Origin: a virus
Length of the DNA stretch: 50,035 nt
IMG/VR virus record: IMGVR_UViG_3300022542_000276
Reading direction: 5' to 3' (one strand)
In this document: in pieces, positions 1,889 through 37,429 of the stretch
How the letters are laid out: each line of letters starts with the position of its first letter
Position numbering within the stretch: position 1 is the stretch's first letter
Notes under the pieces: model-generated
Told to the model about the DNA's origin: nothing
The model's input: the letters and a program-made list of their open reading frames with translations, nothing else
The model's database searches: none
Translations under genes and position numbers: made by a program

Positions 1889-2447
1889 TCATCAAAAAAA
1901 TATCTTCAGCGTACTCAACCTAGTAGATGATATACAAAAGCGTCTCGGTGTATCTTCTATCCTTGATATAGGCGCTGGATTCGGCAAATACGGACTCCTT
2001 CTTCGTGAACGTCTAGACATACGCTTCCTCCGCTATAACAAACCATCCTGGATAACTCGCATAGATGCTGTAGAACCCTACTCTGATTACATAACCCCTG
2101 TTCACAAATACATCTATGACAACATCTACTTAGACAAAATAGAAAACTTAGCATCTACCCTCCCTAACTACGACATAATCTTAATGATAGATTGCTTAGA
2201 ACACCTTGAAAAGTCTACTGGAGAAAAACTTCTAACAGAATTAGACTCTAAAACTAACAAACTACTAATCTTGTCCTTTCCTAATATTTACCAAGCAAGG
2301 GCCGGCGCCGACTGGATCAATGACTTAGAGCGCCATCGCTGTCTATGGACTAAAGAAGACCTAACATTCATACTAGGTCCTGTAAACCATCACAAGTTTA
2401 CAATCTATGTAAAAGATAAAACTAATCAAACTAACCAGATCGTTTAA
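1878..2447 (+). CDS. Class I SAM-dependent methyltransferase
   Basis: Motif I 'ILDIGAGFGKYG' and 'ILMIDCLEHL'. It overlaps the glycosyltransferase gene by 11 nt, and its stop lies inside a dyad copy (protein ends ...NQIV*). Confidence 0.7.
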   Translation: MPISHQKNIFSVLNLVDDIQKRLGVSSILDIGAGFGKYGLLLRERLDIRFLRYNKPSWITRIDAVEPYSDYITPVHKYIYDNIYLDKIENLASTLPNYDIILMIDCLEHLEKSTGEKLLTELDSKTNKLLILSFPNIYQARAGADWINDLERHRCLWTKEDLTFILGPVNHHKFTIYVKDKTNQTNQIV

Positions 2448-5667: not shown

Positions 5668-6444
5668 ATGGCTGACGAAAACAAAATATATATCAGTGCG
5701 GGTCTAATACCTAAAAAAGATACTGGAAGTGGAATATCTAATAAGGTCTATCTCAGTGCTGGTCTAACTCCTGATGTTGAATCAGTTGTTACTACTACTG
5801 CACCTACTACTCTAGCACCAACTACACTTGCGCCTACTACTTCACCTCCTACCACTCCACCTCCAACAACTATCGCACCTACTACATTACCACCTACTAC
5901 ACCTAGCCCAACTACCCCTTCTCCAACTACCTTACCTTCCACAACTATTGCACCAACAACACCTAGTCCAACAACTTTAGCACCTACAACTATATCCCCT
6001 ACCACTTTAGAACCTACAACAGTGACACCAACTACATTACCTACCACTGTACCTCCTACAACCTTAGCACCTACTACTCTTGTTCCTACTACTGAAGTCA
6101 CAACATTAGCACCTACGACAGAGGCTCCAACTACACCTGAACCTACAACAACTGCTCCTACGACTTTACTGCCGACCACACTTGCACCAACGACTATAGC
6201 CCCTACTACTTTAGTCCCTACTACTCCCAGTCCTACAACCCTAGCACCTACTACATTAGCAACTACTCTAGGACCAACTACTACCCTAACCACACCTGGA
6301 CCTACTACTGCTCCACCATCTATGCCATGTGGAGATAAAACTATAAAGATAATACAAGATAATCTAACCATAAACCTTATACAAGACAATCTAACCATCA
6401 ATCTTGCACAAGACAACTTAATCATAAACATCACACCATGCTAG
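5668..6444 (+). CDS. Mucin-like Pro/Thr-repeat protein
   Basis: 258 aa, of which about 176 aa are xPTT(L/I)A-type repeats. The N-terminus has a duplicated '(I/V)Y(I/L)SAGL(I/T)P', and the C-terminus has 3x 'IQDNLTIN'. Confidence 0.7.
   Translation: MADENKIYISAGLIPKKDTGSGISNKVYLSAGLTPDVESVVTTTAPTTLAPTTLAPTTSPPTTPPPTTIAPTTLPPTTPSPTTPSPTTLPSTTIAPTTPSPTTLAPTTISPTTLEPTTVTPTTLPTTVPPTTLAPTTLVPTTEVTTLAPTTEAPTTPEPTTTAPTTLLPTTLAPTTIAPTTLVPTTPSPTTLAPTTLATTLGPTTTLTTPGPTTAPPSMPCGDKTIKIIQDNLTINLIQDNLTINLAQDNLIINITPC
5791..6318 (+). repeat. Coding tandem array of APTT(L/I)-type Pro/Thr repeats
   Basis: Residues 42-217 of the 5668..6444 product. The antisense 'VVG' ORF 5748..6434 is a by-product of this array. 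Confidence 0.9.
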
Positions 6445-6454: not shown

Positions 6455-6814
6455 ATGGAACAGATTAAATGCTACAAAGATAGAAACAATACTTTTTGGA
6501 TAAAACTATACAAAGACAACATTATCCTAACCCCTGCTGAAATGGCTGTGATTACAAAGTTTGAAATAAAACATCAAGGAACCTACTACAACTCTACTGA
6601 TAACCCAACTGGATTCACTCGAGACGATGCAAATGGCAGAGTCAAAATCAAACCTTTTGAACTTGATTTACCAACTTCAAAAGACCTTGTAGAATTCCTA
6701 GTCTACGACGCTGGCGACAACACTAACGGACTATACTGGACTACCTTTGAACTATCAATAAGAAACGATGTACTTATACCTACTACACTTGCTCCCACTA
6801 CTGCAGCACCATAA
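6455..6814 (+). CDS. Hypothetical virion-arm protein with a C-terminal PT tail
   Basis: 119 aa ending 'IPTTLAPTTAAP*' (nt 6776-6811). Confidence 0.6.
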   Translation: MEQIKCYKDRNNTFWIKLYKDNIILTPAEMAVITKFEIKHQGTYYNSTDNPTGFTRDDANGRVKIKPFELDLPTSKDLVEFLVYDAGDNTNGLYWTTFELSIRNDVLIPTTLAPTTAAP

Positions 6815-11011: not shown

Positions 11012-11479
11012 ATGAGTTTAGAAGATCGTGGCGCTCAGCATGATAAAATAGTTGTAGACAAATATCATGGACCTATCGCCAACTATACAATGACAACTAG
11101 AGACTACATACTACGTCCAGCTGCAGGCCCTGCCACTGGCGCATTCACTATAACTTTACCGCCAGTGACTGAGGCAAAAGGTAGATTTTACTCCCTTATT
11201 GCCCGCGACGCTGACGGTACAAATACTATCACTATCCAAGACCGAGATGAGAGTGAATGCTGGGATGGTGATATTACTTTCAATGGTAAATGTGATAAGG
11301 TATTACTATACTCTGACGGTCTAGCCTGGCTTGTACTTGCTTCAGTCCTAACCGCTACTGGCACTACAGCTGCACCTACAACTATTGCACCTACAACTAT
11401 TGCCCCAACTACCCTAGCTACAACTGTTGCACCTACTACAGCTGCACCTACTACTCTGTCTCCGACTACAGCTGCTTAA
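11012..11479 (+). CDS. Putative head decoration / minor capsid protein with a C-terminal PT array
   Basis: 155 aa, immediately upstream of the capsid gene. The last 42 aa are 'TATGTTAAPTTIAPTTIAPTTLATTVAPTTAAPTTLSPTTAA'. Confidence 0.4.
   Translation: MSLEDRGAQHDKIVVDKYHGPIANYTMTTRDYILRPAAGPATGAFTITLPPVTEAKGRFYSLIARDADGTNTITIQDRDESECWDGDITFNGKCDKVLLYSDGLAWLVLASVLTATGTTAAPTTIAPTTIAPTTLATTVAPTTAAPTTLSPTTAA
11351..11476 (+). repeat. Coding APTT(I/L) Pro/Thr repeat array
   Basis: Residues 114-155 of the 11012..11479 product. Confidence 0.9.
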
Positions 11480-12877: not shown

Positions 12878-12897
12878 ATTTAATAACCAAACGAACT
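12873..12897. repeat. 25-nt dyad element, copy 6
   Basis: agatcatttaataaccaaacgaact, followed by 'attggagac' and ATG 12912. Confidence 0.75.
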
Positions 12898-12911
12898 ATT
12901 GGAGACTAAAA

Positions 12912-16580: not shown

Positions 16581-19500
16581 ATGTCAAGACTCTGGACAGA
16601 TAATTCAACAGATCGAGTATGGACAGATAATTCTACTGATAGGCTGTGGAATGATAGTACATTTACTACTGCTAGTCCTACTACATTGGCTACTACAGTT
16701 GCTCCAACTACTATAGTTACAACTGTAGCACCTACTACTTTACCTCCTACTACTATATTACCACCTACGACTTCTCCACCTACTACATTAGTTCCTACCA
16801 CTTTAGGCCCAACCACAGTAGGTCCTTCAACTGCCGTACCAACAGTAGGTCCGACTACTATAGCACCTGAACCTAAGCATGGTTATGCACTGGTAAGGAA
16901 TGGTTGGTGTGAAGATGGATTTAAGAGATGTAAGTGGTCTAGTCTTGGAAGGACTATGGCAAGTCAGAGTAGTAATGCTATAGATGAAAGAGGTAGAATG
17001 TTTACTTGGGGACAAAATTATTATTCCCAAAGTGGTCAAGGATTAGGTATTCCAGCTGGAGAATTATCACAGATAGAATATGCTACACAGATTGGTGCAG
17101 AGAGTAATTGGGTTAAGGCCGAATCAGGAGAGTTGTCAACTATAGCAATTAATAAAGATGGTGAACTATGGGGATGGGGTAATGCAGATAATGACTGTGA
17201 GCCTTTTGGTCTACCACCTTTTTCTGGGGATAATGGTGATGCTAGATTTTACTACCCAAGAATGGTAACTCCAGGATATGTATGGAAAGACTTCACCCAT
17301 GACTATTATCATACTATGGCTATAGATGAAAATGATAAGTTATGGATCTGGGGAATGAACTATGATGAATGTTTTGGGATGAGAGGAGTTCCTATACCTT
17401 ATAATAATGGTTCAGCTACACCGATCCAGCATACATATCTAACTGATGATGTAAAGTTAATAGATTGTGAATTGTTAGGTAATGTAGTTGTAACAACTAA
17501 TGATAAAGTATATGTATTCGGTGAAGGATTTTATACCTTCTTTGGATTTCCTGATCTAAAAGAGCCAAGAGAAATAACTGGATTGATTATTCCTTTAGGT
17601 GAAACTATAACTGAAATCACCTCATCTAATATGGGAATAACTGCATTATTGTCTAATGGTGAACTATGGGCAGCTGGACAGAGTTATATCTTTGGTGATA
17701 ACCGTACTGCATACCCTGCTGGATCAGACACTTTTGTTAAGATCCCTTTCTTTATTGGAAAAGAAGTTGTAAAAGTAAGGAATACATCACTTGGTGCTAC
17801 AAGTATGTTTGTGATAGATGCTAATGGAAACATTTGGGGATGGAGTTATACTACTCAATTCTATCCTGGAAATAGTTTACCAATTCCAGCTTCATATAAT
17901 GAGTTTATGCTAGTCGCTTCAGAATATGAAGGGCAATATAAATGGATAGACATGATAAACAATGAGCATCAACAATGTTATCAAACAATAGATAAAAATG
18001 GATATCTTTATACATGGGGACGACAGTGGTGGGGACCACACTTAGCATTAGGTGCTGCATATGATCAATCTGCAGCAGACGACGATCCTAATATTACAGA
18101 TATAGTAAAGGCAAGACTATATGCAGGTAAAGCTGCAAGAGCACTTGACTACAAACAAGAATTTACTACTTTAAATACTATACCAGTCGGTGAATCGAAC
18201 TACATCCAACCACTTGACCAAGATAAACGACATAAACCCTGTGGACACTGGCATAAAAGACTGTTTGAAGAGGAAGTTGAATATCCTGTAAACTGCTGGA
18301 TGCCTAGTCTAGCAGTCCATAATGAGTTAATTTTCTTCGTTGCATCTGGCAAACATCAACAACTTCATATAGCTGACACCGGCAGTGAAGTGTTATTCTT
18401 TACTTATAATATAGATACTGGAGTATGGGAGTGGTTACTGTACGAACAAAACATAAACGCATCTAACTTTCCAGGCGGTGCAGCTATCGACATAGACATC
18501 TATGCATTCTTTAACTATAAAGCAGATATATCTGGTGATAGACTAAATGAAATATTTACAAATCCAGCTATGGGAATCTGGGTACTACACAATGATATAT
18601 TAAAGTATACCGAGTGGACAGATAACATACCAATGTCTGGACAAAATAAACTAGGTGTGCATTCTACTGGATTAGTCGCTTTGGCTTACACTAATACAGC
18701 AGGACAAGTTTTAATAAAGGTATCAACCGACTTCGGTGTTACATTTAGTAATGTAAAAACACTGCCAACACTATCTGCAAGAAAAGACTATAGTTTAATA
18801 GTAGACCCTAATGGATATATTTATCTAGCACACCAGATATCAACCACATCTATAAAGATTGAAAGGTCAATAAATAATGGAGTTAGCTGGACTACACAGA
18901 TAGTTTCTAACTATATAATGCCTAACATAACCAAAGTCAAATTAATCTCTGACAATGCTATGCTATTCTTAATCTGTGCTAGTGAGACGGCTACAGCTAT
19001 AGAACGCAGTGAGAATGATGGAGTTAGTTGGACAACTTCGGGAGCCGGAGAACCTGGAAGTTCTATAGTCGGCTCAGTCTGTAATATATCTGACGGAGAT
19101 GATAACTATGCTATAGTATTAGTAGATGGTGATACTATTGAATATAAAACTTTTCCATCAGGTGAACAATATACAGTCTACGGAACTATGTATAACTATA
19201 TCTGGGACTTTAACTATGGAGATTATACTTGGTTAGAAAGAGATATCGCGCATCTTAGTGTGGATAGTGAAAATATGGATATAAGTGTGCAAGAATCAAA
19301 TTCTACACTAGAAGGCTACAATGGAAGATTTGCTTATTCATCTTACGGATTTTTCTCTGCACCTGATAATCATGTAGCGATAGTAATATCAAGTAATAAA
19401 GGAGCTAATTGGCAGGTAATATCTGTCCCACTTGGCTACAATAACGAGAATGAAATTTCAGATTTTAAAGGCTGTCCTTTATTCTGTATCAAAGATATTC

Positions 19501-19604
19501 CATACCTTAATCACATATGGAGTTTTGAAAAAAGTGATTGGAATGAAAAGTTTGTAGAGCAAAAAGATAAATACGTTAAAGTTAACAAATGTGAATGTAA
19601 ATAG
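16581..19604 (+). CDS. Tail fibre/spike: WTDNSTDR repeats, PT linker, RCC1-like propeller, BNR/Asp-box propeller
   Basis: RCC1-like 'G(E/K)LW(G/I)WG' blades occur at least 6 times (MFTWGQN, ELWGWGN, KLWIWGM, ELWAAGQ, NIWGWSY, YLYTWGR). Asp-box 'S-x-(D/N)-x-G-x-(S/T)-W' occurs 4 times (STDFGVTF, SINNGVSW, SENDGVSW, SSNKGANW). Confidence 0.7.
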   Translation: MSRLWTDNSTDRVWTDNSTDRLWNDSTFTTASPTTLATTVAPTTIVTTVAPTTLPPTTILPPTTSPPTTLVPTTLGPTTVGPSTAVPTVGPTTIAPEPKHGYALVRNGWCEDGFKRCKWSSLGRTMASQSSNAIDERGRMFTWGQNYYSQSGQGLGIPAGELSQIEYATQIGAESNWVKAESGELSTIAINKDGELWGWGNADNDCEPFGLPPFSGDNGDARFYYPRMVTPGYVWKDFTHDYYHTMAIDENDKLWIWGMNYDECFGMRGVPIPYNNGSATPIQHTYLTDDVKLIDCELLGNVVVTTNDKVYVFGEGFYTFFGFPDLKEPREITGLIIPLGETITEITSSNMGITALLSNGELWAAGQSYIFGDNRTAYPAGSDTFVKIPFFIGKEVVKVRNTSLGATSMFVIDANGNIWGWSYTTQFYPGNSLPIPASYNEFMLVASEYEGQYKWIDMINNEHQQCYQTIDKNGYLYTWGRQWWGPHLALGAAYDQSAADDDPNITDIVKARLYAGKAARALDYKQEFTTLNTIPVGESNYIQPLDQDKRHKPCGHWHKRLFEEEVEYPVNCWMPSLAVHNELIFFVASGKHQQLHIADTGSEVLFFTYNIDTGVWEWLLYEQNINASNFPGGAAIDIDIYAFFNYKADISGDRLNEIFTNPAMGIWVLHNDILKYTEWTDNIPMSGQNKLGVHSTGLVALAYTNTAGQVLIKVSTDFGVTFSNVKTLPTLSARKDYSLIVDPNGYIYLAHQISTTSIKIERSINNGVSWTTQIVSNYIMPNITKVKLISDNAMLFLICASETATAIERSENDGVSWTTSGAGEPGSSIVGSVCNISDGDDNYAIVLVDGDTIEYKTFPSGEQYTVYGTMYNYIWDFNYGDYTWLERDIAHLSVDSENMDISVQESNSTLEGYNGRFAYSSYGFFSAPDNHVAIVISSNKGANWQVISVPLGYNNENEISDFKGCPLFCIKDIPYLNHIWSFEKSDWNEKFVEQKDKYVKVNKCECK
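16665..16874 (+). repeat. Coding PTT-type Pro/Thr repeat array (70 aa)
   Basis: Residues 29-98 of the fibre: 'TTASPTTLATTVAPTTIVTTVAPTTLPPTT...GPTTIAPEP'. Confidence 0.9.
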
Positions 19605-20081: not shown

Positions 20082-20255
20082 ATGAGTACATCTCCTCCTA
20101 CTACACTATCACCAACTACGTTAGCGCCAACAACTTTGGCTCCTACTACACTTGCACCTACTACTCTAACTCCTACTACCACTCCACCTACATCATTAGC
20201 ACCAACTACAACTTTAACAACCCTTACACCTACTACCCCTAGTCCACGAAATCCA
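20082..20255 (+). repeat. Coding APTTL Pro/Thr repeat array
   Basis: Residues 1-58 of the 20082..21347 product. The antisense ORF 20045..20281 is a by-product. Confidence 0.9.
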
Positions 20256-21347
20256 CTTAATGACAAGACATTTAATTGCAAAGCTGATAACTATGCAGGT
20301 GTATTATTTGTAGATACTTACATTGAGGGTGTAGCAGCTAGTCCTTCATATGGATTAACTGATTTGGAATTAGTTGTAGAAACTACAATATCTGGTAATG
20401 TACCAACTTCTGCACTATATATTTTAGAAGACCTAGCACTTATAGTAGACACTTACATAACTGGATGGGCAGTTGCTAATGATGAAAGAAGTAACTGGGT
20501 CGGTTGGAGTAAGATTGGCGAAGCTGACTTTACAATAGATATGGTTAACGATGCTGGATTCAAGACACTTGAATGGTCAGGCTATATATACAATGTATTG
20601 AAGTTAGATAAAAACATAGTTATATATGGAAGTGGAGGAATAACCTTAGCATTTCCAGTGTCTGAACCAATAGCTACTTTTGGTTTCAAACCTTTATTAA
20701 ACATAGGTATTAAGAATAAAACTGCTGTAACCGGTGATGAGTTTGTACACTTTTTCATAGACACCCTTGGACACCTTTACAAACTATCATCTGAAGGATT
20801 GGAAAAGTTAGGTTATGAAGAATTCTTACTACCACTAATCAATCCTGTCCTCACATGGGATGCTGCTGAGAGAAGACTATATATTAGTTCAGCTTCAGTA
20901 GGCTACATATTCAACGAGGGATCATTAACAGGTGGATACACTAACTTGACAGGACTTTACAGAATAAAAGATAACATAGAAGCTATCTCACCTGAGACGG
21001 TCATAGCTGATGCAGTCGAACTAGTCACCGACATTATAGACTTTAGACGTAGAGGAATGAAGTCTATCGAATCGCTACAGTTTGACGTTACATCAGATGT
21101 TGATATCTACGTAGCTATTGACTACAGATATAGAAAAAATGAAGAATTCCAAACTACTAATTGGTCTCCTCTAAATGACTCAGGTGTAGCACATATAAGA
21201 GCTTCAGGAACTGAATTTAGGATCAGATGCAAAGGACTCAAGTATGGCACCTTTGATCTTTCATACATTAGTGTACAATACAAGTTCATTGATCAAAGAT
21301 TCTCAAGGGACCCAAATAATAGAAGAGGTGGACTAGATGATTATTAA
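20082..21347 (+). CDS. Virion-arm protein with an N-terminal PT array
   Basis: 421 aa. The first 58 aa are 'MSTSPPTTLSPTTLAPTTLAPTTLAPTTLTPTT...'. Confidence 0.6.
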   Translation: MSTSPPTTLSPTTLAPTTLAPTTLAPTTLTPTTTPPTSLAPTTTLTTLTPTTPSPRNPLNDKTFNCKADNYAGVLFVDTYIEGVAASPSYGLTDLELVVETTISGNVPTSALYILEDLALIVDTYITGWAVANDERSNWVGWSKIGEADFTIDMVNDAGFKTLEWSGYIYNVLKLDKNIVIYGSGGITLAFPVSEPIATFGFKPLLNIGIKNKTAVTGDEFVHFFIDTLGHLYKLSSEGLEKLGYEEFLLPLINPVLTWDAAERRLYISSASVGYIFNEGSLTGGYTNLTGLYRIKDNIEAISPETVIADAVELVTDIIDFRRRGMKSIESLQFDVTSDVDIYVAIDYRYRKNEEFQTTNWSPLNDSGVAHIRASGTEFRIRCKGLKYGTFDLSYISVQYKFIDQRFSRDPNNRRGGLDDY

Positions 21348-23907: not shown

Positions 23908-26900
23908 ATGAGTAAATCATTGTTAGATATAGAACTAGTATCGTTTGAATCTGAAGGTCAGACTAAACAAGATAGTTTATTAGATATAGATCTTGTACCG
24001 TTTGGTGGGAAAGATATAAGTACTATAGATCCAGACTTAGATATAAAACTTATACCTTTTGGTACAGAAGAGCCTAAACTTGGTATACAAAAACCTATGA
24101 TTGAAGAACCTATAATCAAAAGAGAACCGTTTAGTAAACTTACAGAAGACTTTTATTCTAGAATACTTAACACACAAAGTTCTGAAGATAGAAAGAAGTT
24201 AGGTGTAGATGACACTGGAAGACCGATCGAAGATGAAGGATTTATAAGTAAAACTGGCAAATCCTTCAGTGATACTTTTAGACAATTAAGAGTGTTAAAA
24301 GGTAGACCTGATATAGTATTTCAAGGCTTAGCAGACTTTACTTTAAGTATACCTGGATTTGCAGTTGGAATAATAGATGCAGGAGTCAGTACTTCAAAGG
24401 AATTAGTAGATCAAATAGTGTTAGGTAATGAAATTAACTTGGAAGAAGTCTACAATTCGGCCGCTGAAGGTATGCAAAGAAGTATGGAGTTCTTTGAACC
24501 TGGTAAGGAGATGATATTAGGTAAGGTGCCTGAAGAATCACGATTAATAGGTGAAGTGGCTATGGCACCTATGACTGCACTAAGTATGACAGGACATAAA
24601 ATTGCAGATTGGGAAGGATTTAAAGATTATCCTAATATTCGTGGTGCAGCAAGGTTTGCTGGGGATATAGCTGGAATCGGCGCTATGGGATTCATAATGC
24701 ATGGACCGAGTGGAAAAGGTAAACTTGGAAGGGATATAGAAGAAGTTGTCACAGCTGCTGAACAAGTAGCAGTCAAGGAAAGTAGACTAGCCGAAATACC
24801 TAATGAAATAGCAAAACAAGCAATGGCTAAGGTATTGGAAATAGAGAAAATACAATTAGAGTTAAAAGCTAAAGATATAGCAGATAGTATTAGCAAAGAT
24901 GCAGTAATTAGAGAAGAGTTATTAGTGCAGAGTGAAAGATTAGCAAGGGAAAAGATGTTACCAGTCACAGGTAAGCCAGAAGCTACTTTTGTAAGTAAGA
25001 AAGGAAATGTTTACAATAAAGTTGATGGTATCTGGTATGATGAAGCAGGAAAGAAAGTAACTAATACTTTTAAACTTAAGGCTATTGAAAAGGGAGTTAA
25101 GGAGAAAGTTGTTGAACCTGTTGAGCCAAAAGAAGTTGTCGAACCAGATCGTTTAAAAATTGAACGACCTGAAGCAAAGATTACAAAACTTCCAGTCAAA
25201 CGTAAACTAAAAGCTGGTGATAGGGTAATAGTTTATGGTGAAGGGATTCCAGAAAGGATAATGGACTTTGCTGATGAATATGGTTTCTGGGATAAGCAGA
25301 ATGTGTATCCTGAAAAGATAAAAGAGTATGTAAGGAAGAGCTATGGTAAAGAAGGATTGAGGGAATATAATAAGATATTGTTAGATTTTGAAGATCCTGT
25401 TGCTGCATTGAGTAGATTTTTTAAGGATAAAGATATTATTGAGCCTAAAAAGCAGTTGGAGGTTGTTCCAGAACCAGATCGTTTAAAGATTGAACGACCT
25501 AAACCAACTGAATTAGTCGAACCTATAACCGAAATCGATCAGTCCACAGGCTCCCGCTTGCCTAACATCGAAGGTGAGAAAAGTCCTTTCTTTCAAGATT
25601 CTACAAAGACTACTCAAATGGCTGAGACATTCACTGAACGTGCTACCGCTGTGAGTGAAAGTGTAGAAATGTTCACACAGAAAATAATCAATGATGTGAA
25701 TCAGTGGTATCATAAGTTAAATGAAATAGATATAGAATCTGCTAGGGAAGGACTAAGTGAGTTAGCCTCCAGGGCTGATGAACTAAGAGGTGAATTCATA
25801 ACAGGGGCCGACCATGCAGTGTGGAAGGAAACTATATCAGAAGCTGCCACCTGGGCTAGGAGGTTAGATAGAAAAGTTATAAAGACAATATCTGAAAAGG
25901 AATACATAGATAAATTTAAAACTGTGTGGGATGAGTATGAGATAGAAATAGAAGCTACAAATAGAGGTATCAAGCCAGCATTTTATTATGCTACGAAAGA
26001 CCAAAAAATTATAGATTATGCTAAGTCAAAGGGATTAAAAGTTATAGAAGACATTACTCCTAGTGGTGACTTTATAGCTATAAAAGATAACATATTAGGT
26101 AATATAGTGGCTAATAAACTTATTGAATTATCGAAGAGAAGGAAAGAGATATTTAAAACAAGAGATATTGAAATTATAGATAAATGGAATGAAGAGTTTA
26201 GTGAAGCCTTAGGATATGATAAAGAACTATCCCAAAATATAAGGGATATTAGTGGGATGGGTCCCAGAGATTTAGAGGCTAAGAGAATACATAGTTATAT
26301 ACAGAAATTAGACCGTTTGGAAATTAAACGAACTGGAGAAGTAGTCAAAGAACTAACCAGGCAAGAGAAGATAGATAAGTTAATGAAAACTTTTGAGTCA
26401 GAAGGATTCAAACTTACAACTGGAATCGACCCAGTTAAGGGCATCAAAGCCCTAATTGAAGGTGCCAAGGAAACAATTGACTATGTTAAAGAATCTAGAG
26501 AACTAAAAAAATTCAAGCCTAAAGCAGCTATAAAAAACACTTATGAGGAATTAGTTAGATCTGGACTAGACGTATCAGGAAATATTAGAACCGAGTTTTT
26601 AGACAAGTTAGGAGATGAAGGATATAGGATAATACAAGCTATGTATTTAAGCAAAGGTGCTCATCCTAGAGTGACCGGTCTAATAAATCAGATGAGTAAG
26701 GAAGTATATAGTGGATTGAATAGAAATGAAAGACGGATATTAGATACTTTAGTATTAACTAGTCGAATGGTTGCTATAGCGAAAACCCCTTCAGGTGTTG
26801 GATTTAAGTATCCAAAGAAACTAACTCCAGAAAAGTCAGTTGTATACAGTGAACTGTTTGGTGAGATAGAAAAAATATCTCCAGAACGAACTGCAGTTAT

Positions 26901-29136
26901 TAGACAAAGAGCTAAAGCCTACTTTGACTGGATGAAAAAGCCACTTAAGGAAATGCATGAAGCTGAACTAATAACTGCTAAAGAACTTAATGATTTAAGT
27001 TCGCATAATTATAGTAAGCTAAAACTAGTTGACTTGTATGATGTAGAAAGACCTGGTATAGGGCCACGAGGAAGGACTGTATATGATTCAGGGATTCAAT
27101 CTTTAAAGAAAGGTAGAGACACAGACATCTTTGAATCATCTAGCAAAATTATGGCTTTGGAAGTATTCAATAGAGCATATGGTAGAATTATGAATAATAA
27201 GGCTAATCTAGCTTTATTGGATGTAGCTAAGGCCGATCCAACTAATCCATTTGTCAGAGTTAAACTGGACAAAGCAGATATAATTCCATCTGGATGGAAA
27301 AGAAGTTTCGTATTTAAAGATGGTGAAAGAATACCTATATATATTTCTCCTAAAATGGCTAAGGAATGGTTAAGTACTAACAAAGAAATTAGTTATAAAG
27401 CTGCACAAATAGCTAGGTGGGTTAGTGGATCGGTTGTGTTGAGGACCTTTGCTACTGGTATAAACTGGGGATTTGCCTTAGCTAATCTACCAATGGATGT
27501 CATGCGTGCTTGGTTTGCTGCTAGAACATGGAAAGATGGTAAGTGGGAAAGTGTATACAGTCCAATTACGCCAGTCTATGGATTACAAATGAGTAGAGAT
27601 CTAGCTACTGTATTCTCAGACTCTGTATTAAGAAAAGGCAGATTTAATAAGTATCTTGAAGAAGGCGGGGGACTAGAATACTTGACTCAACAGGGAAGGT
27701 TATTCCAAAAAGGTAGGCATCTTGAAGGACCGTTGGATAAGATACAGAATGTCCTAGGTTACTTTGGTGAGACTTCTGAAAATATGACTAGGTTAGCTAT
27801 AATGGAAAGAGTTATAAGGAATAGAGCTAAAGAACGTGGACTTACAATGGAACAGGCAAGGAAAGTCAAAGGGATTACTCGTGAAGCTGCGTTTGCTGCT
27901 AGAGATCAATTAGACTTCGGTCAAGGTGGGAGTATAACTAAAGCACTCGATACTGGTATACCGTATCTAAGTGCTGCAATACAAGGCACAAGAGGAATGT
28001 TTAGAACTTTTATACCTGGAAGCGGCACTGCATTTGAGTCTACGTTTAAGTTGGCTCAATTTGCAGCGTTGACTACTGGAACGATGGTAGTTGCATTGAA
28101 TATGGCACCGGAAACTATGGAGGAATTAGAGGGTAATCCAGCTAAGTTGAATAACTTGACTGTGCCTATAGGTGACCAGTTTGGATTTGAAGATGAATAC
28201 GGTCAAATGAGATATCCTTTTTTTAAAATACCTTTGGATCACGGACAGAGATTTTTCAAGACATTTTTTGAAGCGGCTGCTAGAAAACAAATGGGATATG
28301 AAATAGATATTAATGAAGTAGTTGACTCATTAAAAAGTGTATCACCAGTAGGAGTGTCAAGTTTACCACCAACCATTAGTGGCACATTAGGCTATGTTAC
28401 TAACAAAGACTTTTGGTTAAACGAAGATATTTGGCGTAAGACTGATCGACCATTTGCTTGGCCAGAGTCAAGAGAGGAGTATATCCCTGGAAGGACTCCA
28501 CAAGTTTATATAGATATTGGTCAGGTCACTGGACTAAGTCCTGAACGTACAAGATATGCAGTGGAGGAATTGGTTACTAGTGGAACCGTATGGTCTTATT
28601 TACTAGGCCAAGGCTATGATGCTATGTTTAGTGACTTGCCGAAAAGTAATAAAGAACAACATATAGCACAGGTGTTATCAAAGATGCCTATTACTAAAAG
28701 GTTCATAGGTATTACTAATCCTTATTCTAAATATGCAGAGAAGATTGAGAAAGCACAGGAAGTTGCAGTTATAGAAAGGTTTGTAGAAAATAGAGGCTTA
28801 GACGCTTTAGCCGAAGGTTACTTGTTTAAAGATACTGTAAGTCGTAAGGAAGTTATAGACTACATGAGATCATTTAAGGATCTAGACACCTTCGATCGGT
28901 TAAAGGAAAGATTCTTATTCCAAGAAATTACTAAAGACTTACCAGAAAGGAGTTTCTGGTTAAGACTGCAAGGTGTAAGATTAGAGGCTAGGGCTAGAGT
29001 ATTTGTGGATAGGTTAGAGAAAGCTAATCCAGAACAACGGAAGCAGATTTGGAAAGAATATTCAACCGTTGTCCTGGCTAAAGGAATAGTTAGTAAAGGA
29101 TTTAGAGAAGAAGTATTAAAACTACGAGGTCGGTAA
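23908..29136 (+). CDS. Giant internal virion / DNA-ejection (or tape-measure-like) protein
   Basis: 1742 aa and the last gene of the virion arm. Long helical/charged N-terminal half. Contains three in-frame copies of the 25-nt dyad element. Confidence 0.55.
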   Translation: MSKSLLDIELVSFESEGQTKQDSLLDIDLVPFGGKDISTIDPDLDIKLIPFGTEEPKLGIQKPMIEEPIIKREPFSKLTEDFYSRILNTQSSEDRKKLGVDDTGRPIEDEGFISKTGKSFSDTFRQLRVLKGRPDIVFQGLADFTLSIPGFAVGIIDAGVSTSKELVDQIVLGNEINLEEVYNSAAEGMQRSMEFFEPGKEMILGKVPEESRLIGEVAMAPMTALSMTGHKIADWEGFKDYPNIRGAARFAGDIAGIGAMGFIMHGPSGKGKLGRDIEEVVTAAEQVAVKESRLAEIPNEIAKQAMAKVLEIEKIQLELKAKDIADSISKDAVIREELLVQSERLAREKMLPVTGKPEATFVSKKGNVYNKVDGIWYDEAGKKVTNTFKLKAIEKGVKEKVVEPVEPKEVVEPDRLKIERPEAKITKLPVKRKLKAGDRVIVYGEGIPERIMDFADEYGFWDKQNVYPEKIKEYVRKSYGKEGLREYNKILLDFEDPVAALSRFFKDKDIIEPKKQLEVVPEPDRLKIERPKPTELVEPITEIDQSTGSRLPNIEGEKSPFFQDSTKTTQMAETFTERATAVSESVEMFTQKIINDVNQWYHKLNEIDIESAREGLSELASRADELRGEFITGADHAVWKETISEAATWARRLDRKVIKTISEKEYIDKFKTVWDEYEIEIEATNRGIKPAFYYATKDQKIIDYAKSKGLKVIEDITPSGDFIAIKDNILGNIVANKLIELSKRRKEIFKTRDIEIIDKWNEEFSEALGYDKELSQNIRDISGMGPRDLEAKRIHSYIQKLDRLEIKRTGEVVKELTRQEKIDKLMKTFESEGFKLTTGIDPVKGIKALIEGAKETIDYVKESRELKKFKPKAAIKNTYEELVRSGLDVSGNIRTEFLDKLGDEGYRIIQAMYLSKGAHPRVTGLINQMSKEVYSGLNRNERRILDTLVLTSRMVAIAKTPSGVGFKYPKKLTPEKSVVYSELFGEIEKISPERTAVIRQRAKAYFDWMKKPLKEMHEAELITAKELNDLSSHNYSKLKLVDLYDVERPGIGPRGRTVYDSGIQSLKKGRDTDIFESSSKIMALEVFNRAYGRIMNNKANLALLDVAKADPTNPFVRVKLDKADIIPSGWKRSFVFKDGERIPIYISPKMAKEWLSTNKEISYKAAQIARWVSGSVVLRTFATGINWGFALANLPMDVMRAWFAARTWKDGKWESVYSPITPVYGLQMSRDLATVFSDSVLRKGRFNKYLEEGGGLEYLTQQGRLFQKGRHLEGPLDKIQNVLGYFGETSENMTRLAIMERVIRNRAKERGLTMEQARKVKGITREAAFAARDQLDFGQGGSITKALDTGIPYLSAAIQGTRGMFRTFIPGSGTAFESTFKLAQFAALTTGTMVVALNMAPETMEELEGNPAKLNNLTVPIGDQFGFEDEYGQMRYPFFKIPLDHGQRFFKTFFEAAARKQMGYEIDINEVVDSLKSVSPVGVSSLPPTISGTLGYVTNKDFWLNEDIWRKTDRPFAWPESREEYIPGRTPQVYIDIGQVTGLSPERTRYAVEELVTSGTVWSYLLGQGYDAMFSDLPKSNKEQHIAQVLSKMPITKRFIGITNPYSKYAEKIEKAQEVAVIERFVENRGLDALAEGYLFKDTVSRKEVIDYMRSFKDLDTFDRLKERFLFQEITKDLPERSFWLRLQGVRLEARARVFVDRLEKANPEQRKQIWKEYSTVVLAKGIVSKGFREEVLKLRGR
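25146..25170. repeat. 25-nt dyad element, copy 10 (inside a CDS)
   Basis: agatcgtttaaaaattgaacgacct, translated as (P)DRLKIERP. Confidence 0.75.
25476..25500. repeat. 25-nt dyad element, copy 11 (inside a CDS)
   Basis: agatcgtttaaagattgaacgacct, translated as (P)DRLKIERP. Confidence 0.75.
26310..26334. repeat. 25-nt dyad element, copy 12 (inside a CDS)
   Basis: agaccgtttggaaattaaacgaact, translated as (L)DRLEIKRT. It is followed by 'ggagaa', exactly as upstream of the portal gene. Confidence 0.75.
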
Positions 29137-34826: not shown

Positions 34827-35036
34827 TTATTCTCCTAACATTTTAAGCAATTCTGCCGCTTGAGCCTTGGATATTTTAGAGGCGGCCTTAGACTGACTGA
34901 TTTTGTTTTTAGTTGATTTAGACTTTTTCTTATCTGGAATACGACGTGAAAGACGAAGTTCTCGTAAGTATTCAATAGCTTCGTCTTTATTCATGTCGGA
35001 TACAGATTTGATTGGTAGGTCTTCAATAGTAGCCAT
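34827..35036 (-). CDS. Hypothetical Lys-rich protein
   Basis: 69-aa ORF, tightly packed. Confidence 0.5.
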   Translation of the reverse strand: MATIEDLPIKSVSDMNKDEAIEYLRELRLSRRIPDKKKSKSTKNKISQSKAASKISKAQAAELLKMLGE

Positions 35037-35275
35037 TATTTACATCTCCTTTTAGCTTTAGCTAAACTCGGTAAGATTTCCCTAGGCTTGACTGCCCCGT
35101 CTAGGATTGCACCTATAACTATATTACCGTGGTTTTCTATAAGATCTAATACATCGTCTAAGATTATAGAAAATATAGATTTGCGTATGCCATAGATGGA
35201 TATTAGTTTATCAGCCCGTAACTTTTGTTCGTCCGAGATTTCGAAAGAGAACTTCGCCTTATATTCACTATTCAT
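35036..35275 (-). CDS. Hypothetical protein
   Basis: 79-aa ORF with a GGAGG SD. Confidence 0.55.
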   Translation of the reverse strand: MNSEYKAKFSFEISDEQKLRADKLISIYGIRKSIFSIILDDVLDLIENHGNIVIGAILDGAVKPREILPSLAKAKRRCK

Positions 35276-35288: not shown

Positions 35289-35313
35289 AGATCGTTTAAC
35301 AATTAAATGAACT
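35289..35313. repeat. 25-nt dyad element, copy 16
   Basis: agatcgtttaacaattaaatgaact. Overlaps the stop of the SQD1-like gene. Confidence 0.8.
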
Positions 35314-36490
35314 ACTTCCACTTTGTTTCAGGCATAATTACAGATCCAACTACCCTTTCTTTATACTGTAAAAGGTAAGATAGCAAAGTATGAATCTCAT
35401 GTTTGATATTAGTTGTAGGAATATAGCCTAAGCTACGAAGACCTTTAGAAGTAGGATTATAGTAGTGATTTTCATCCTCACTACGTGGATTGTCGAGGTG
35501 AGTTACAGAAGGCTTCAGGTTAAGGGATTTAGCTTTCCGTACTACAATATTGGCTAGGTTATTTAACGAGTAGGTAGACTCATACTGATTAAAGACTTGA
35601 TAGGTGCCAGGTTTAGGTGGGTTGTCTATGATAAGGTTAATGCATTGGATAGAGTCTTTAAGTGGTAAGAATCCACGCTTTTGATTTCCCGAACCGTAGA
35701 CAGTTAAAGGATGATTGATTATAGCTTGAGCACAGAATCGGTTGATTATAGTACCAAAATACTGGTCGTAGTCAAAGCGGGTTACAAGGGAAGGTTCGGT
35801 GTCGGTTAAGCCATAGACTACACCTTGCATGATATCAGTGGAAGTTAATCCCCAAGTTTTGCAGGCAAAGATAATATTATGAGTATCGTGGACTTTGGAT
35901 AGATGATAGAAAGAACCTGGAGATTTAGGAAAAGGGAGACCAGCCATAGGACACGGAGCTGTTTGGTTATCTAAAGTGGACAAGCCTAAACATTTTTTAG
36001 GTATCTCCCCTTCAGGTATGTCACAGTCAGGCGTACCATACTCGCCCATTGTGCCTAGTTTGATTAAGTGAACATCAGGACATTTTTCCTTTATAGTCCA
36101 CAGGAGATTTAAAGTACTTAGGACATTCTCACGCTGGGTGGAAGCGGCATGTTCTGAGTCGATCATAGACCAAGGTGCAGAAGGTTGTTCGGCTAGGTGG
36201 ATTATCGTGTCAGGATAGAATTCTTCAAATAAGTTATCCAAGCCAAACTTTCCAATATGGAATAGGGAATATTTAGATATATTTGCATAGTTTTTGTAAG
36301 ACTTTAAAATATTCAGTCGATCAAGTCTACAACTTATAGGAGTTAGTGAGTTAGAACCTACATCTCTAACTCTTTGCCTCCTTGTATAATTATCAATGCC
36401 TGCTACTTGATAACCTTTTTTTAACAGATGGAGAGCCAAAGACCAGCCAATATACCCATCGTAACCTAGAATTAAAACTTTCTTTTTCAT
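35312..36490 (-). CDS. sqdB: UDP-sulfoquinovose synthase homologue (SQD1/SqdB/Agl3 family, extended SDR)
   Basis: The following blocks are near-identical to plant SQD1 as I recall it: 'VLILGYDGYIGW', 'KLGTMGEYGTP', 'FYHLSKVHDTHNI', 'QGVVYG', 'NRFCAQA', 'HPLTVYGSGNQKRGFL', 'SIQCI', 'YQVFNQ', 'NPRSEDENHYYN' and 'IMPETKWK'. Length is 392 aa. Confidence 0.8.
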   Translation of the reverse strand: MKKKVLILGYDGYIGWSLALHLLKKGYQVAGIDNYTRRQRVRDVGSNSLTPISCRLDRLNILKSYKNYANISKYSLFHIGKFGLDNLFEEFYPDTIIHLAEQPSAPWSMIDSEHAASTQRENVLSTLNLLWTIKEKCPDVHLIKLGTMGEYGTPDCDIPEGEIPKKCLGLSTLDNQTAPCPMAGLPFPKSPGSFYHLSKVHDTHNIIFACKTWGLTSTDIMQGVVYGLTDTEPSLVTRFDYDQYFGTIINRFCAQAIINHPLTVYGSGNQKRGFLPLKDSIQCINLIIDNPPKPGTYQVFNQYESTYSLNNLANIVVRKAKSLNLKPSVTHLDNPRSEDENHYYNPTSKGLRSLGYIPTTNIKHEIHTLLSYLLQYKERVVGSVIMPETKWK

Positions 36491-36699
36491 ATATCTGACT
36501 TTCCTTTTTTACATAAAGTGTTTATTATAAGTTCTGCTCCTTTACTATCAATGTTTGAAATAGCTCTGAATGTAGTATCTGGAGATTCAAATTCAGATAC
36601 TAAAAGCAAAAATACTTTACCTTCAAGTATCCATTCTATAAGCTGTGCTATGTGGTTAAGTTGTTCTTCAATATTATTAGATGATTCTTGATTACACAT
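36487..36699 (-). CDS. Hypothetical protein
   Basis: 70-aa ORF with a 4-nt overlap with the SQD1-like gene. Confidence 0.5.
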   Translation of the reverse strand: MCNQESSNNIEEQLNHIAQLIEWILEGKVFLLLVSEFESPDTTFRAISNIDSKGAELIINTLCKKGKSDI

Positions 36700-36713
36700 T
36701 AGTTATTCTCCTT

Positions 36714-36848
36714 CTATTTTTTTCTTTTATCTTTTTTATGTTGACTAATTTTAATCGCAGCTAGTTGTTTTAATGCTTCTTTACGTGTTTTGTGAATTCC
36801 AGGGACATTACGTATCTTCCATCCACCTTTCACTTTATATACTGGCAT
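36714..36848 (-). CDS. Small basic protein (44 aa). The start is moved to an internal ATG.
   Basis: ATG 36848 is preceded by 'aaggaaataact'. The track start 36932 is a TTG inside the tRNA-like element. Product is MPVYKVKGGWKIRNVPG...KKDKRKK. Confidence 0.5.
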   Translation of the reverse strand: MPVYKVKGGWKIRNVPGIHKTRKEALKQLAAIKISQHKKDKRKK

Positions 36849-36873
36849 AGTTATTTCCTTTAGTTTTAAGTCT

Positions 36874-36982
36874 ATGGGAGGCAAGGATTTGCACCTTACA
36901 TACAGTTTCCATCGTGCCCGCTCTAAGGCCAAGCCGTTTTTCTGCGTGTACCTACTACGTCTACCTATTCCGCCACTCCCAT
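36874..36982 (-). other. tRNA-Leu-like element (109 nt), non-canonical
   Basis: The minus strand reads ATGGGAG-TG-GCGGAATAGGTAGACGT...TAAGG-TGCAAAT-CCTTG-C-CTCCCAT. It has a perfect 7-bp acceptor-like stem, a D-arm nearly identical to bacterial tRNA-Leu (TGGCGGAATTGGTAGACGC), and a T-arm-like hairpin. I found no foldable anticodon arm, and it is about 20 nt too long. Confidence 0.35.
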
Positions 36983-37007
36983 AGATCGTTTAATAATTAA
37001 ATGGACT
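36983..37007. repeat. 25-nt dyad element, copy 17
   Basis: agatcgtttaataattaaatggact. Directly abuts the 5' end of the tRNA-Leu-like element. Confidence 0.85.
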
Positions 37008-37012
37008 GATTG

Positions 37013-37429
37013 TTACTTCCTAATCACATACTTCTTAATAGTATTACTATCACCGTAGGTATCATCTTTCTTTACACCAAGAATAGCCCAACCAGTCATG
37101 CCAATCAAGTCATCTTCCCACGAAAAGGGACGGGAATAGTCAAGGTCGATAGCAGCAGCGAAGTTACGAAAGTCGTTGAGAGCACGGGCAAACTGTTTAA
37201 GATCAAGTTTTTCACGGTCGAGTTCCCAGAAGAAATCGTTAAACTCGATTACCATAGGATCATCAGGGATGTCGAAGACGGGTTGATACCAGGTACAGTC
37301 ATTCTTATCTGATATGCCAGAACGTACTGAGATAATTCGGAAGTTTGCCTCGGTACCTGCGGGGAGGATTTTAGGTTCTTGCGCGTCGTTGATTTCTTGT
37401 TCCATGTCTGAATAATCAGTTAAGGACAT
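37013..37429 (-). CDS. Acidic protein, DUF669-like (putative ssDNA-binding)
   Basis: 138 aa. The call rests on a remembered DUF669 pattern and its frequent pairing with AAA_24 ATPases, and is weak. Confidence 0.35.
   Translation of the reverse strand: MSLTDYSDMEQEINDAQEPKILPAGTEANFRIISVRSGISDKNDCTWYQPVFDIPDDPMVIEFNDFFWELDREKLDLKQFARALNDFRNFAAAIDLDYSRPFSWEDDLIGMTGWAILGVKKDDTYGDSNTIKKYVIRK

Follow-up and report, generated by a model that had tools for sequence, protein, structure and literature searches.

We found that a complete, circular 49.9-kb phage genome, contained in the 50,035-nt stretch of DNA analyzed here as a whole (hereafter the window), carries a gene for a specific homologue of the SQD1/SqdB/Agl3 enzymes, and that across related phages this gene occurs together with a phage glycosyltransferase of family GT2 and with proteins bearing Pro/Thr (PT) repeats. 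SQD1 and SqdB are the UDP-sulfoquinovose synthases of the sulfolipid pathway. From the gene content, we tentatively propose, at a little under an even chance, that the phage makes UDP-sulfoquinovose for glycosylation of its own proteins, probably those of the virion, by way of a working SqdB and a GT2 that acts on the Pro/Thr repeats.

The sqdB-like gene is a real open reading frame on the minus strand, and its 392-aa product is homologous to SQD1/SqdB/Agl3 over its full length, with 46% identity to Arabidopsis SQD1. A phmmer search of the PDB returned SQD1 (1QRR) with an E-value of 4.8e-105, residues 3-392 aligning with 2-383, while the next short-chain dehydrogenases/reductases (SDRs) reached only ~1e-8. 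The first-pass annotation had argued from a series of motifs for a protein beyond a generic SDR, and all of these aligned to Arabidopsis SQD1: KLGTMGEYGTP, FYHLSKVHDTHNI, QGVVYG, NRFCAQA, HPLTVYGSGNQKRG, NPRSEDENHYYN, and IMPETKWK. Additionally, the model NF041015 ('UDP-sulfoquinovose synthase') matched with an E-value of 7e-141 and 469.6 bits, against 45.8 bits for the next family. The NCBIfam equivalog cut-off of this model is 575 bits, but the validated Arabidopsis SQD1 (485.7 bits) and SqdB of S. meliloti (332.1 bits) also fall below it, so that a score under this narrow cut-off cannot rule a protein out of the family; a denial of family membership on this ground was dropped after calibration with SQD1 itself. 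The AF2 model (pLDDT 91.5, pTM 0.92) superimposed in Foldseek on 1QRR with a TM-score of 0.92 and an rmsd of 2.4, other SDRs scoring at most 0.70. By phmmer, NF041015, the active-site residues, and Foldseek, the protein is thus nearest to SQD1 and not to ordinary epimerases or dehydratases, and it is a specific member of the SQD1/SqdB/Agl3 family.

The catalytic set is intact, which bears out the earlier assignment at the level of SQD1-specific active-site residues. Specifically, the NAD motif GxxGxxG is present as G9-YD-G12-YI-G15, and T147, M148, E150, Y151, Y195, H196, and K199 correspond to SQD1 T145, M146, E148, Y149, Y182, H183, and K186; the equivalent of SQD1 Q209 is also kept. Each catalytic-set position is retained in at least 106 of 120 members of the phage clade described below, and most in 119 or 120. 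Mutagenesis of Agl3 found the equivalents of SQD1 M146, E148, Y149, Y182, and K186 to be essential, while the T144A variant (equivalent to SQD1 T145) was still active (PMC4388408). Like its relatives, the window protein should catalyze the formation of UDP-sulfoquinovose from UDP-glucose and sulfite. Pro replaces SQD1 Arg101 at one further position, both in the window protein and in 118 of the 120 clade members. An Arg101 is essential in Agl3 and presumably corresponds to this residue. Pro is nevertheless the majority state among cellular representatives too, including those of Actinomycetota and haloarchaea, so Arg at this position is not family-defining, and a phage-specific loss was ruled out.

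The phage copies formed a monophyletic clade of their own in a coarse neighbour-joining tree, outside the plant SQD1 clade (the tree held no cyanobacterial SqdB). The 120 closest database proteins are 56-68% identical to the window protein and all lie on contigs of at most 53,037 bp, about 30 of them on contigs of 46-53 kb. The nearest named cellular group is Anaerolineae, at 48% identity, and the neighbouring representatives are singletons on short contigs; haloarchaeal homologues are 35% identical. The G+C content of the gene equals that of the genome, and some clade members contain inteins placed exactly at conserved active-site motifs. Together, the G+C match, the small-contig relatives, the monophyly, and the position of the inteins argue for long residence in phages under selection. 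The PHROGs collection holds no dedicated family for this protein, and among the 50,697 phage records of INPHARED there was neither a DNA match to the window nor an SqdB homologue in any phage. The earlier statement that no phage sqdB had been characterized therefore holds for that collection, but viral sqdB is not entirely unprecedented, as Mara et al. [quoted passage not shown]

Members of the phage clade also share four cysteines, Cys137 (114/120), Cys156 (117/120), Cys167 (118/120), and Cys180 (120/120), which were missing from all cellular sequences compared. These frame a length-variable insert that replaces SQD1 segment ~155-175 and is specific to the phage clade; in the sequence it is near the active site, and it could confer altered chemistry. 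An enzyme that keeps the SQD1 scaffold, but in which the Cys-rich insert brings in another sulfur donor or nucleophile, or which stops at a 6-deoxy, 4-keto, or 5,6-ene UDP-sugar, would account for these near-invariant cysteines around a variable segment. It would also be in keeping with the insert's lower pLDDT (72-84, below the rest of the model), the Pro at SQD1 position 101, and the observation that Agl3 releases UDP-glucose-5,6-ene when sulfite is absent (PMC4388408). We consider such a change of function unlikely, given that all residues known to matter in catalysis are retained, that the Pro is shared family-wide with cellular members, and that viral homologues lacking the Cys-type insert adjoin PAPS reductase genes.

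Window features, including those of the sqdB slot, are listed in Table 1. The genome encodes a large terminase subunit (TerL), portal, major capsid protein (MCP), primase, and PolA, confirming that the gene is phage-encoded, and is one of a large family of uncultured phages. For PolA and MCP, the best matches (46% and 51%) are to a Desulfofustis phage, the nearest named relative, for which the host link comes from CRISPR (PMC10370329). Microcystis phage Mel-JY34 reached 28% only, and the sole cyanophage link was one relative's small protein with a Pam3_gp32 domain. A cyanobacterial host, at which the first-pass annotation had hinted, was therefore rejected, on the Desulfofustis phage matches, the lack of any match in the 50,697 phage records, and the placement of the clade outside plant SQD1. 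Separately, an OMP beta-barrel gene in one relative is a hint of a diderm host.

Table 1. Features of the window discussed in the text (strand: +, -, or. where not applicable)
Feature	Coordinates	Strand	Remarks
GT2-family (GT-A, inverting) glycosyltransferase	884..1888	+	Phage-restricted family; PF00535, E 1.2e-10
SAM-methyltransferase-like gene	1878..2447	+	Between GT2 and terminase; 25.9 bits, under the Pfam cut-off of 27
258-aa protein	5668..6444	+	Mostly mucin-like xPTT repeats (TTLAPTT-type) with 31 PT dipeptides; possible acceptor of glycosylation
119-aa protein	6455..6814	+	C-terminal PT-repeat tail
155-aa protein	11012..11479	+	Just upstream of major capsid gene; C-terminal APTT-repeat tail
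1007-aa RCC1-repeat protein	16581..19604	+	N-terminal PT-repeat region; tail/fibre module by position
421-aa protein	20082..21347	+	N-terminal PT-repeat region
p79	35036..35275	-	Conserved family gene, downstream border of the slot; followed by p69 and ParB-N6/N4 methyltransferase
Junction palindrome copy	35289..35313	.	At sqdB stop
sqdB-like gene, 392 aa	35312..36490	-	SQD1/SqdB/Agl3-type UDP-sulfoquinovose synthase homologue, phage-restricted clade
70-aa ORF	36487..36699	-	Stop overlaps sqdB start (ATGA); no Pfam family
Sigma-70-like promoter match	36524..36551	-	TTGATA-16-TATAAT, 11/12, 34 nt upstream of sqdB start
44-aa basic ORF	36714..36848	-	Not conserved in relatives
Degenerate tRNA-like remnant	36874..36980 (about)	-	D-arm-like GGCGGAATAGGTAGAC, T-arm-like GGTGCAAATCC
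Junction palindrome copy	36983..37007	.	Just past p138 stop
p138	37013..37429	-	Conserved family gene, upstream border of the sqdB slot

In the replication module, sqdB is accessory and occupies a variable slot flanked by two conserved genes; of 78 family loci, 34 have it there. The sigma-70-like sequence upstream of it is a consensus match only, and the total of promoter-like sites in this region was not above shuffle expectation. The slot had earlier been described as a palindrome-bracketed cassette. Both dyads and both small ORFs do exist, but they do not delimit a special unit: the dyads are two of the 26 genome copies (at up to 5 mismatches; 22 at gene junctions) of one 25-bp junction palindrome, AGATCGTTTAATAATTAAACGATCT, for which base-composition shuffles yielded zero copies. 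The exact palindrome core was missing from all 480 related loci, and neither the 44-aa nor the 70-aa ORF had a counterpart beside sqdB in 22 related loci, so the dyads were discarded as cassette borders. The proposed tRNA-Leu identity of the adjacent element was likewise abandoned, since ARAGORN at default settings made no call, Rfam gave no match at E-values up to 10, and the fold was not better than shuffles (z -0.61); at an 80% threshold ARAGORN returned only a poor 'tRNA-Ser'. We retain the element as a degenerate tRNA-like remnant because one relative has a better-preserved homologue (L011:289-394; 34 bits to Rfam tRNA, with a 44-nt middle unaligned). In that relative it lies 5 kb from sqdB, and the two are unlinked.

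A single glycosyltransferase, the GT2, was found in the window; it adjoins the terminase region and heads the packaging/structural module, 14 kb from sqdB, on the opposite strand and in a different module. Its PDB relatives match weakly (E ~5e-5) and use UDP-GlcNAc, UDP-GalNAc, or UDP-GlcA. PT repeats occur in six structural-module ORFs of the window. These proteins had no PHROG matches, and from the position of their genes they are likely virion components. Loci flanking TerL in relatives did not contain the methyltransferase-like gene that lies next to the GT2, although methyltransferases recur beside glycosyltransferase or sqdB genes in other phages. Along with the DUF1353 and beta-helix genes of the window, this gene was dropped as a conserved partner, since the same loci showed no cases or two cases only.

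Among 34 related genomes of at least 36 kb, 20 had both sqdB and the GT2 family, none had sqdB only, two had GT2 only, and 12 had neither (Fisher p 1.7e-7, a statistic that ignores shared ancestry); GT2 was thus present in 20 of 20 sqdB-positive genomes. The presence of sqdB is phylogenetically clustered, with 9 changes against 21 expected at random, and co-transitions of sqdB and GT2 were found in separate branches of the ParB tree. Contigs of the same sizes also recurred in the independent lists of database matches to sqdB and to GT2. Of the 21 genomes classed as GT2-positive for this comparison, 9 had PT-repeat ORFs, against 0 of 13 others (p 0.006), counts that cover the retrievable parts of the genomes only. 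The first-pass annotation had raised the supply of a donor sugar to the glycosyltransferase and PT-repeat system as one possible role, and this now gains comparative support from the co-occurrence of sqdB with GT2 and the restriction of PT repeats to GT2-positive genomes.

Comparable neighbourhoods were found elsewhere. In one relative, the GT2 is followed by two further glycosyltransferases and a methyltransferase, and in an unrelated viral lineage (L248) a GT2-FkbM methyltransferase fusion lies directly after sqdB. In other viral contigs, the neighbours of sqdB are GT47, GT-D, UDP-glucose dehydrogenase, or more epimerases, and in a further lineage (L255), with a more distant SqdB, the gene order is TerL, epimerase, PAPS reductase, SqdB, portal. 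PAPS reductase produces sulfite, and its place beside viral homologues without the cysteines fits sulfite use by viral SqdB generally. Actinomycetota copies of sqdB adjoin GT2 genes as well, in one genome together with a PMT-like GT-C. Orthology of the phage GT2 with either the GT2 beside Pseudonocardia sqdB or the GT2-FkbM fusion of L248 was rejected, there being no specific similarity; the glycosyltransferase associations are therefore analogous and not inherited.

Alteration of host surface polymers by phage-encoded GT2 enzymes is well documented, and SqdB and the GT2 might together modify host lipopolysaccharide, capsule, or S-layer, blocking superinfection or aiding release. Among the PDB entries nearest to the GT2 are the teichoic-acid glycosyltransferases TarS and TarP, the latter prophage-encoded. 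Two GT2-positive genomes lack sqdB, which the GT2 thus does not require, and in 12 of the 21 genomes classed as GT2-positive for the PT-repeat count the parts examined held no such ORF. However, PT-repeat ORFs occurred only in genomes positive for both GT2 and sqdB, the sequence of the GT2 has no evident membrane segment, and its gene heads the packaging/structural module, so that we regard conversion of the host surface as distinctly unlikely.

Provision of extra UDP-sulfoquinovose to a host SQDG synthase (SqdX/SQD2 or SqdD), leading to membrane remodelling or sparing phosphorus for phage DNA, would be the canonical role of SqdB in bacteria and plastids. In Alphaproteobacteria, sqdB genes stand in sqdB-sqdD(-sqdC) operons, and the early/replication module in which the phage gene lies is a frequent place of metabolic genes. 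This remodelling of host sulfolipid, also put forward in the first-pass annotation, now appears quite improbable. No GT4/GT8 SQDG synthase was found in the window, in related loci, or beside sqdB in 12 other viral contigs; the sole glycosyltransferase of the phage is the GT2, although a host could encode the synthase. GT2 enzymes are inverting and the sulfoquinovose of SQDG is alpha-linked, which are at odds with each other. There was also no sign of a phototrophic host, considering the Desulfofustis relative and the position of the clade outside plant SQD1. Instead, sqdB tracks the phage GT2 and the mucin-like Pro/Thr repeats, which points to sugar decoration over sulfolipid synthesis, and we infer that UDP-sulfoquinovose is used mainly by the phage GT2. 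Finally, placement of the sulfo-sugar on modified bases of phage DNA is hardly credible: the neighbouring ParB-methyltransferase, PolA with a UDG-like domain, and nucleoside deoxyribosyltransferase-like gene, and the dCMP deaminase that relatives carry in this slot region, would suit it, but domain scans detected no dNMP hydroxymethylase or DNA glycosyltransferase family, and the association of sqdB is with GT2 and PT repeats.

Under the proposed glycosylation of phage proteins, SqdB would bind NAD+ and UDP-glucose, both supplied by the infected cell, oxidize C4, and eliminate water to give a 4-keto-5,6-ene. Sulfite, again from the infected cell, would then be added at C6 and C4 re-reduced to yield UDP-sulfoquinovose, of which the GT2 would be the main user. 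Its likely targets are the Thr-rich Pro/Thr repeats of several structural-module proteins, the abundance of Thr suggesting O-linkage, and the outcome would be virions with a sulfonated, mucin-like glycan coat. More broadly, it is possible, if on the doubtful side, that this widespread, uncultured family of ~50-kb phages has its own sulfonated-glycoprotein pathway, in which a phage-only SqdB with a Cys-framed, possibly metal- or redox-active flap serves a phage-only GT2 acting on capsid and tail Pro/Thr repeats.

Several known systems share parts of this arrangement. The window protein resembles SQD1 (1QRR/1I24) and SqdB in its full-length homology, fold, NAD motif, and the residues T145, Y182, H183, and K186; it differs in being phage-encoded, in its separate clade, in Pro for Arg101, and in the Cys-framed insert, and its partner is a GT2 where that of SQD1/SqdB is a GT4/GT8 SQDG synthase. 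Agl3 of Sulfolobus acidocaldarius belongs to the same family, its essential His, Met, Glu, Tyr, and Y-xxx-K set is conserved in the window protein (as compared by described residues), and, as we suppose for the phage, its product goes to glycoprotein and not lipid. Agl3 is, however, a cellular archaeal enzyme that feeds a lipid-linked N-glycan, whereas the setting here is a virus of bacteria in which the GT2 looks soluble and the repeats are rich in Thr. In Che8-type mycobacteriophages, glycosyltransferases reportedly modify C-terminal extensions of the capsid and tail-tube proteins, and are said to use host sugar nucleotides (Freeman et al. 2023, cited by PMC11256854). The window has the same combination of a phage glycosyltransferase with Ser/Thr/Pro-rich segments on structural-module proteins, and unlike those phages it also brings a predicted enzyme for a sulfonated donor. 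Phage PAPS reductase (cysH) and organosulfur auxiliary metabolic genes likewise represent viral steps in sulfur metabolism, and cysH lies directly upstream of sqdB in L255; the window phage has no cysH, and its sulfur would go to a sugar sulfonate and not to cysteine/methionine assimilation. The Cariaco Basin virus, compared here by its description, also has a metagenomic viral sqdB-like gene, discussed as a glycosylation-related auxiliary gene, but it is of the Mu-like type, and the paper contains neither biochemistry nor an analysis of distribution, partner genes, or signatures (PMC7785012).

The conserved, phage-restricted synthase clade, its link to a glycosyltransferase and mucin-like repeats, and the occurrence of sqdB beside PAPS reductase in a second phage lineage would add a new use of sulfoquinovose. 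To our knowledge, this sugar is known almost only from the sulfolipid of phototrophs and the N-glycans of Sulfolobus. The Cys-framed insert is a natural variant of the surroundings of the SQD1 active site and as such useful to enzymologists. For the phages, the pathway would be a new kind of virion modification and would open a viral route into sulfur cycling, probably in non-phototrophic habitats. If the broader proposal is true, sulfoquinovose glycoproteins would for the first time extend beyond Archaea, a virus would for the first time be seen to make a sulfo-sugar coat, and viruses would be direct producers in the environmental sulfoquinovose cycle.

The 392-aa product of the sqdB-like gene matched Arabidopsis SQD1 (1QRR, 1I24) end to end in a search of all PDB sequences (residues 3-392 versus 2-383, E 4.8e-105), while the next SDRs, UDP-xylose synthase and dTDP-glucose dehydratase, followed at about E 1e-8 or weaker. 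All of the SQD1 motif blocks quoted in the first-pass annotation were seen in this alignment. The NCBIfam equivalog NF041015, 'UDP-sulfoquinovose synthase', scored 469.6 bits (E 7e-141), and every other NDP-sugar SDR model remained below 46 bits; the curated NF041015 cut-off of 575 is uninformative here, because validated SQD1 (485.7) and S. meliloti SqdB (332.1) also score below it. An AlphaFold2 model generated with 120 homologues (pLDDT 91.5, pTM 0.92) shares the SQD1 fold, with a TM-score of 0.92 on superposition to 1QRR, whereas epimerases and dehydratases did not exceed 0.70. The assignment to the SQD1 type rather than to generic SDRs was thus borne out by both the search and the model.

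The protein carries a G-xx-G-xx-G motif and retains equivalents of SQD1 T145, M146, E148, Y149, Y182, H183, K186, and Q209, and this catalytic set is near-invariant across the phage clade described below. In Agl3, mutagenesis found the equivalents of M146, E148, Y149, Y182, and K186 to be essential, while T144A (equivalent to T145) was still active (PMC4388408). SQD1 Arg101 is replaced by Pro, also the commonest residue there among cellular homologues. These results show that the protein is a member of the SQD1 family, has its fold, and keeps its active site intact. UDP-sulfoquinovose as its product follows from the established biochemistry of SQD1 and Agl3 and, for the phage clade, is a prediction; this reading is supported by the neighborhood of sqdB in another phage (L255), which includes a PAPS reductase (CysH). 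There, the sulfite producer lies directly upstream of the sulfite user. Sulfite made by PAPS reductase is the co-substrate of SQD1.

The best 120 matches to the window SqdB among 5.8 billion proteins were 56-68% identical and came from contigs of no more than 53,037 bp, about 30 of them 46-53 kb; one was in NCBI assembly GCA_041890195.1, which is syntenic with the window. Cellular homologues were more distant (Actinomycetota, 44-48%; SQD1, 46%; alphaproteobacterial SqdB and haloarchaeal homologues, 35%). Four cysteines conserved in the clade, Cys137 (114/120), Cys156 (117/120), Cys167 (118/120), and Cys180 (120/120), flank an insert that varies in length and sequence and takes the place of a 23-residue SQD1 segment, and none of the cellular sequences compared had them. 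Alternatively to the product predicted above, this insert may alter the chemistry of the enzyme, in which the catalytic residues are nevertheless kept. In a neighbor-joining tree of 50%-identity representatives, which did not include cyanobacterial SqdB, the phage clade was monophyletic and outside the group of plant SQD1 and Actinomycetota. Among cellular clusters with a name, Anaerolineae came closest to it. There is one earlier mention of a putative viral UDP-sulfoquinovose synthase, from a Mu-like virus in metagenomic data (PMC7785012), so the gene class is not entirely new in viruses; new here are a clade confined to phages, the signature it carries, and the genes with which it partners.

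Several SqdB representatives (P0121, P0122, P0124, P0127, P0131, P0197) reach 714-1108 aa through one or two inteins each, at three sites: before the catalytic Thr (KLG/TMGEYG), after GEYG, and in FDYDxxFGT. To our knowledge, this enzyme family was not previously known to carry inteins. The window portal has an intein-like insert at residues ~389-742 (CYDDKTEVLT ... RRNGKVSICGQ/S), the middle of which resembles a homing endonuclease, and the insert is homologous to one SqdB intein from related metagenomic sequences (E 2e-18).

Coordinates of features in the window and in compared loci
Feature	Position	Strand	Details
Terminal repeat	1-141; 49895-50035		100% identical over 141 nt
GT2 glycosyltransferase	884..1888	+	PF00535, E 1.2e-10
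Portal	6861-9878		1005 aa
Tail-module protein	16581-19604	+	1007 aa
ORF with palindrome-like copies	23908..29136		1742 aa; copies at 25146-25170, 25476-25500, 26310-26334
PolA (family-A DNA polymerase), UDG-like N-terminal domain	30705-33227	-	PF03167, precomputed gene calls
sqdB-like gene	35312..36490	-	392 aa; ORF call
tRNA-like element	36874-36980	-	class-II-like D and T arms; degenerate
p138, conserved family gene	37013..37429		
Palindrome sites (among 26)	2437, 4018, 6826, 11485, 12873, 13454, 19603, 22697, 33429, 33490, 35289, 36983, 38433, 38766, 42516, 44008, 45546, 46380, 47838, 49449, 49614		
tRNA-like homologue, L011	289-394	+	34 bits on Rfam tRNA
L255 (IMGVR_UViG_3300033141_004322, 40 kb)	6175-13428		TerL, nucleotide-sugar epimerase, PAPS reductase (CysH), SqdB, portal
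L286 (IMGVR_UViG_3300013117_000172)	3806-5522		weak MobA-like nucleotidyltransferase match; outer-membrane beta-barrel domain protein
Actinomycetota SqdB divergently paired with GT2, L034	4901-5974	-	
Same, L055	2660-3910	-	
Same, L032	7556-8911	+	

The exact terminal repeat indicates a complete, circularly closed assembly of 49,894 bp, which encodes a large terminase, portal, major capsid protein (MCP), primase, exonuclease, Sak4-like protein, ParB-N6/N4 methyltransferase, and DNA ligase. The fusion of PolA to a UDG-like domain was also kept in relatives. No deposited phage matched at the DNA level, no SqdB homologue was present among 50,697 phage records, and PHROGs offered only a generic epimerase family for SqdB. 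Desulfofustis phage LS06-2018-MD01, assigned to its host by CRISPR spacers (PMC10370329), was the closest named phage (PolA 46%, MCP 51%) and lacked sqdB. The family is a large one in IMG/VR, where at least 119 contigs had a capsid gene 72-85% identical to that of the window. A cyanobacterial host, hinted at earlier, was not indicated; the beta-barrel protein in the corresponding region of L286, a GT2-positive relative without sqdB, is a hint of diderm bacteria as hosts of the family.

The gene had been described as part of a palindrome-bracketed cassette with a tRNA-Leu-like element and two small ORFs, a description that did not hold. Both bracketing dyads are copies of one 25-bp palindrome (perfect consensus AGATCGTTTAATAATTAAACGATCT), which the window contains 26 times at up to 5 mismatches and which base-composition shuffles did not yield. 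Since 22 of the 26 are intergenic, at gene junctions on both strands, the palindrome punctuates the entire genome and is not a marker of the sqdB locus; candidate roles are binding of a regulator and formation of an RNA hairpin, as a terminator or for processing. Its exact core was not found in any of the 480 related loci. Two of the three palindrome-like copies inside the 1742-aa ORF encode a repeated peptide, EPDRLKIERP, perhaps by chance or perhaps as part of a functional internal site. Neither the 44-aa nor the 70-aa ORF was next to sqdB in 22 relatives. No tRNA was detectable in the window element; its better-preserved homologue in L011 has a 44-nt unaligned middle where the anticodon arm normally sits, and the terminal stems of the two show compensatory changes. 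We interpret the element in the window as what is left of a decayed tRNA-like sequence, unrelated to sqdB.

Instead, the conserved backbone runs p138, a variable slot, p79, p69, and the ParB-methyltransferase. Across 78 family loci, the slot held sqdB in 34 (gap 1.4-5.7 kb) and lacked it in 44 (gap 63-2302 bp), being an empty 194 bp in the closest ParB relative, and sqdB presence required at least 9 changes on the ParB tree versus 21 for random labels. Therefore, sqdB is accessory, and the slot that holds it is hypervariable.

GT2, followed by a methyltransferase-like gene and then the terminase, was the sole glycosyltransferase found in the window. Profile scans for sqdB and GT2, plus slot analysis, across 34 related contigs of at least 36 kb first gave 19 contigs with both genes, 1 with sqdB only, 2 with GT2 only, and 12 with neither; the lone sqdB-only contig was later found to carry GT2, then two more glycosyltransferases and a methyltransferase. 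The final table was 20/0/2/12 (Fisher p 1.7e-7, in a test that ignores shared ancestry). Co-gain or co-loss fell on separate ParB-tree branches: L326 has both genes amid relatives with neither, and L298 and L319 have neither amid relatives with both. In the L286 slot, a weak MobA-like nucleotidyltransferase match occupies the place of sqdB. The GT2 family is itself phage-restricted: its best 120 matches were all on contigs of at most 52,029 bp, 7 of them equal in length to contigs in the sqdB match list. Mucin-like xPTT (TTLAPTT-type) repeats occur on six structural-module ORFs of the window, and, by the GT2 scores before that last correction, PT-repeat ORFs were present in 9 of 21 GT2-positive contigs versus 0 of 13 GT2-negative ones (p 0.006), counts that are lower bounds because structural modules were incompletely covered. 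The 1007-aa tail-module protein combines N-terminal PT repeats with RCC1-like beta-propeller repeats and several SxDxGxTW-like (BNR-type) motifs.

SqdB homologues without the Cys signature (42-51% identity) were in unrelated IMG/VR viral contigs with G+C of 0.32-0.60, among them L255, and all kept the catalytic residues. In L248, sqdB overlaps at its stop with the start of a GT2-FkbM methyltransferase fusion, and a further glycosyltransferase-like gene follows. Neighbors in other contigs included a GT47 glycosyltransferase and FkbM methyltransferase (L233), a GT-D-like protein (L244), UDP-glucose dehydrogenase (L242), and, in four other contigs, second epimerases. Alphaproteobacterial sqdB was in sqdB-sqdD operons. 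Actinomycetota homologues adjoin a GT2, and one genome also has a PMT-like GT-C after sqdB, which suggests an uncharacterized non-lipid sulfoquinovose glycoconjugate pathway in these bacteria.

As a less likely alternative to use by the phage's own GT2, a host SQDG synthase could take up the phage product, boosting sulfolipid; no GT4 or GT8 SQDG synthase was near sqdB in the unrelated viral contigs examined. Host-surface conversion and DNA modification are further alternatives to be set against the co-occurrence of sqdB with GT2 and PT repeats. Some mycobacteriophages glycosylate virion proteins (work cited in PMC11256854), and, by this analogy and that co-occurrence, we infer that UDP-sulfoquinovose from the phage SqdB would be used by the phage GT2, which would place the sugar on the PT repeats of virion proteins.
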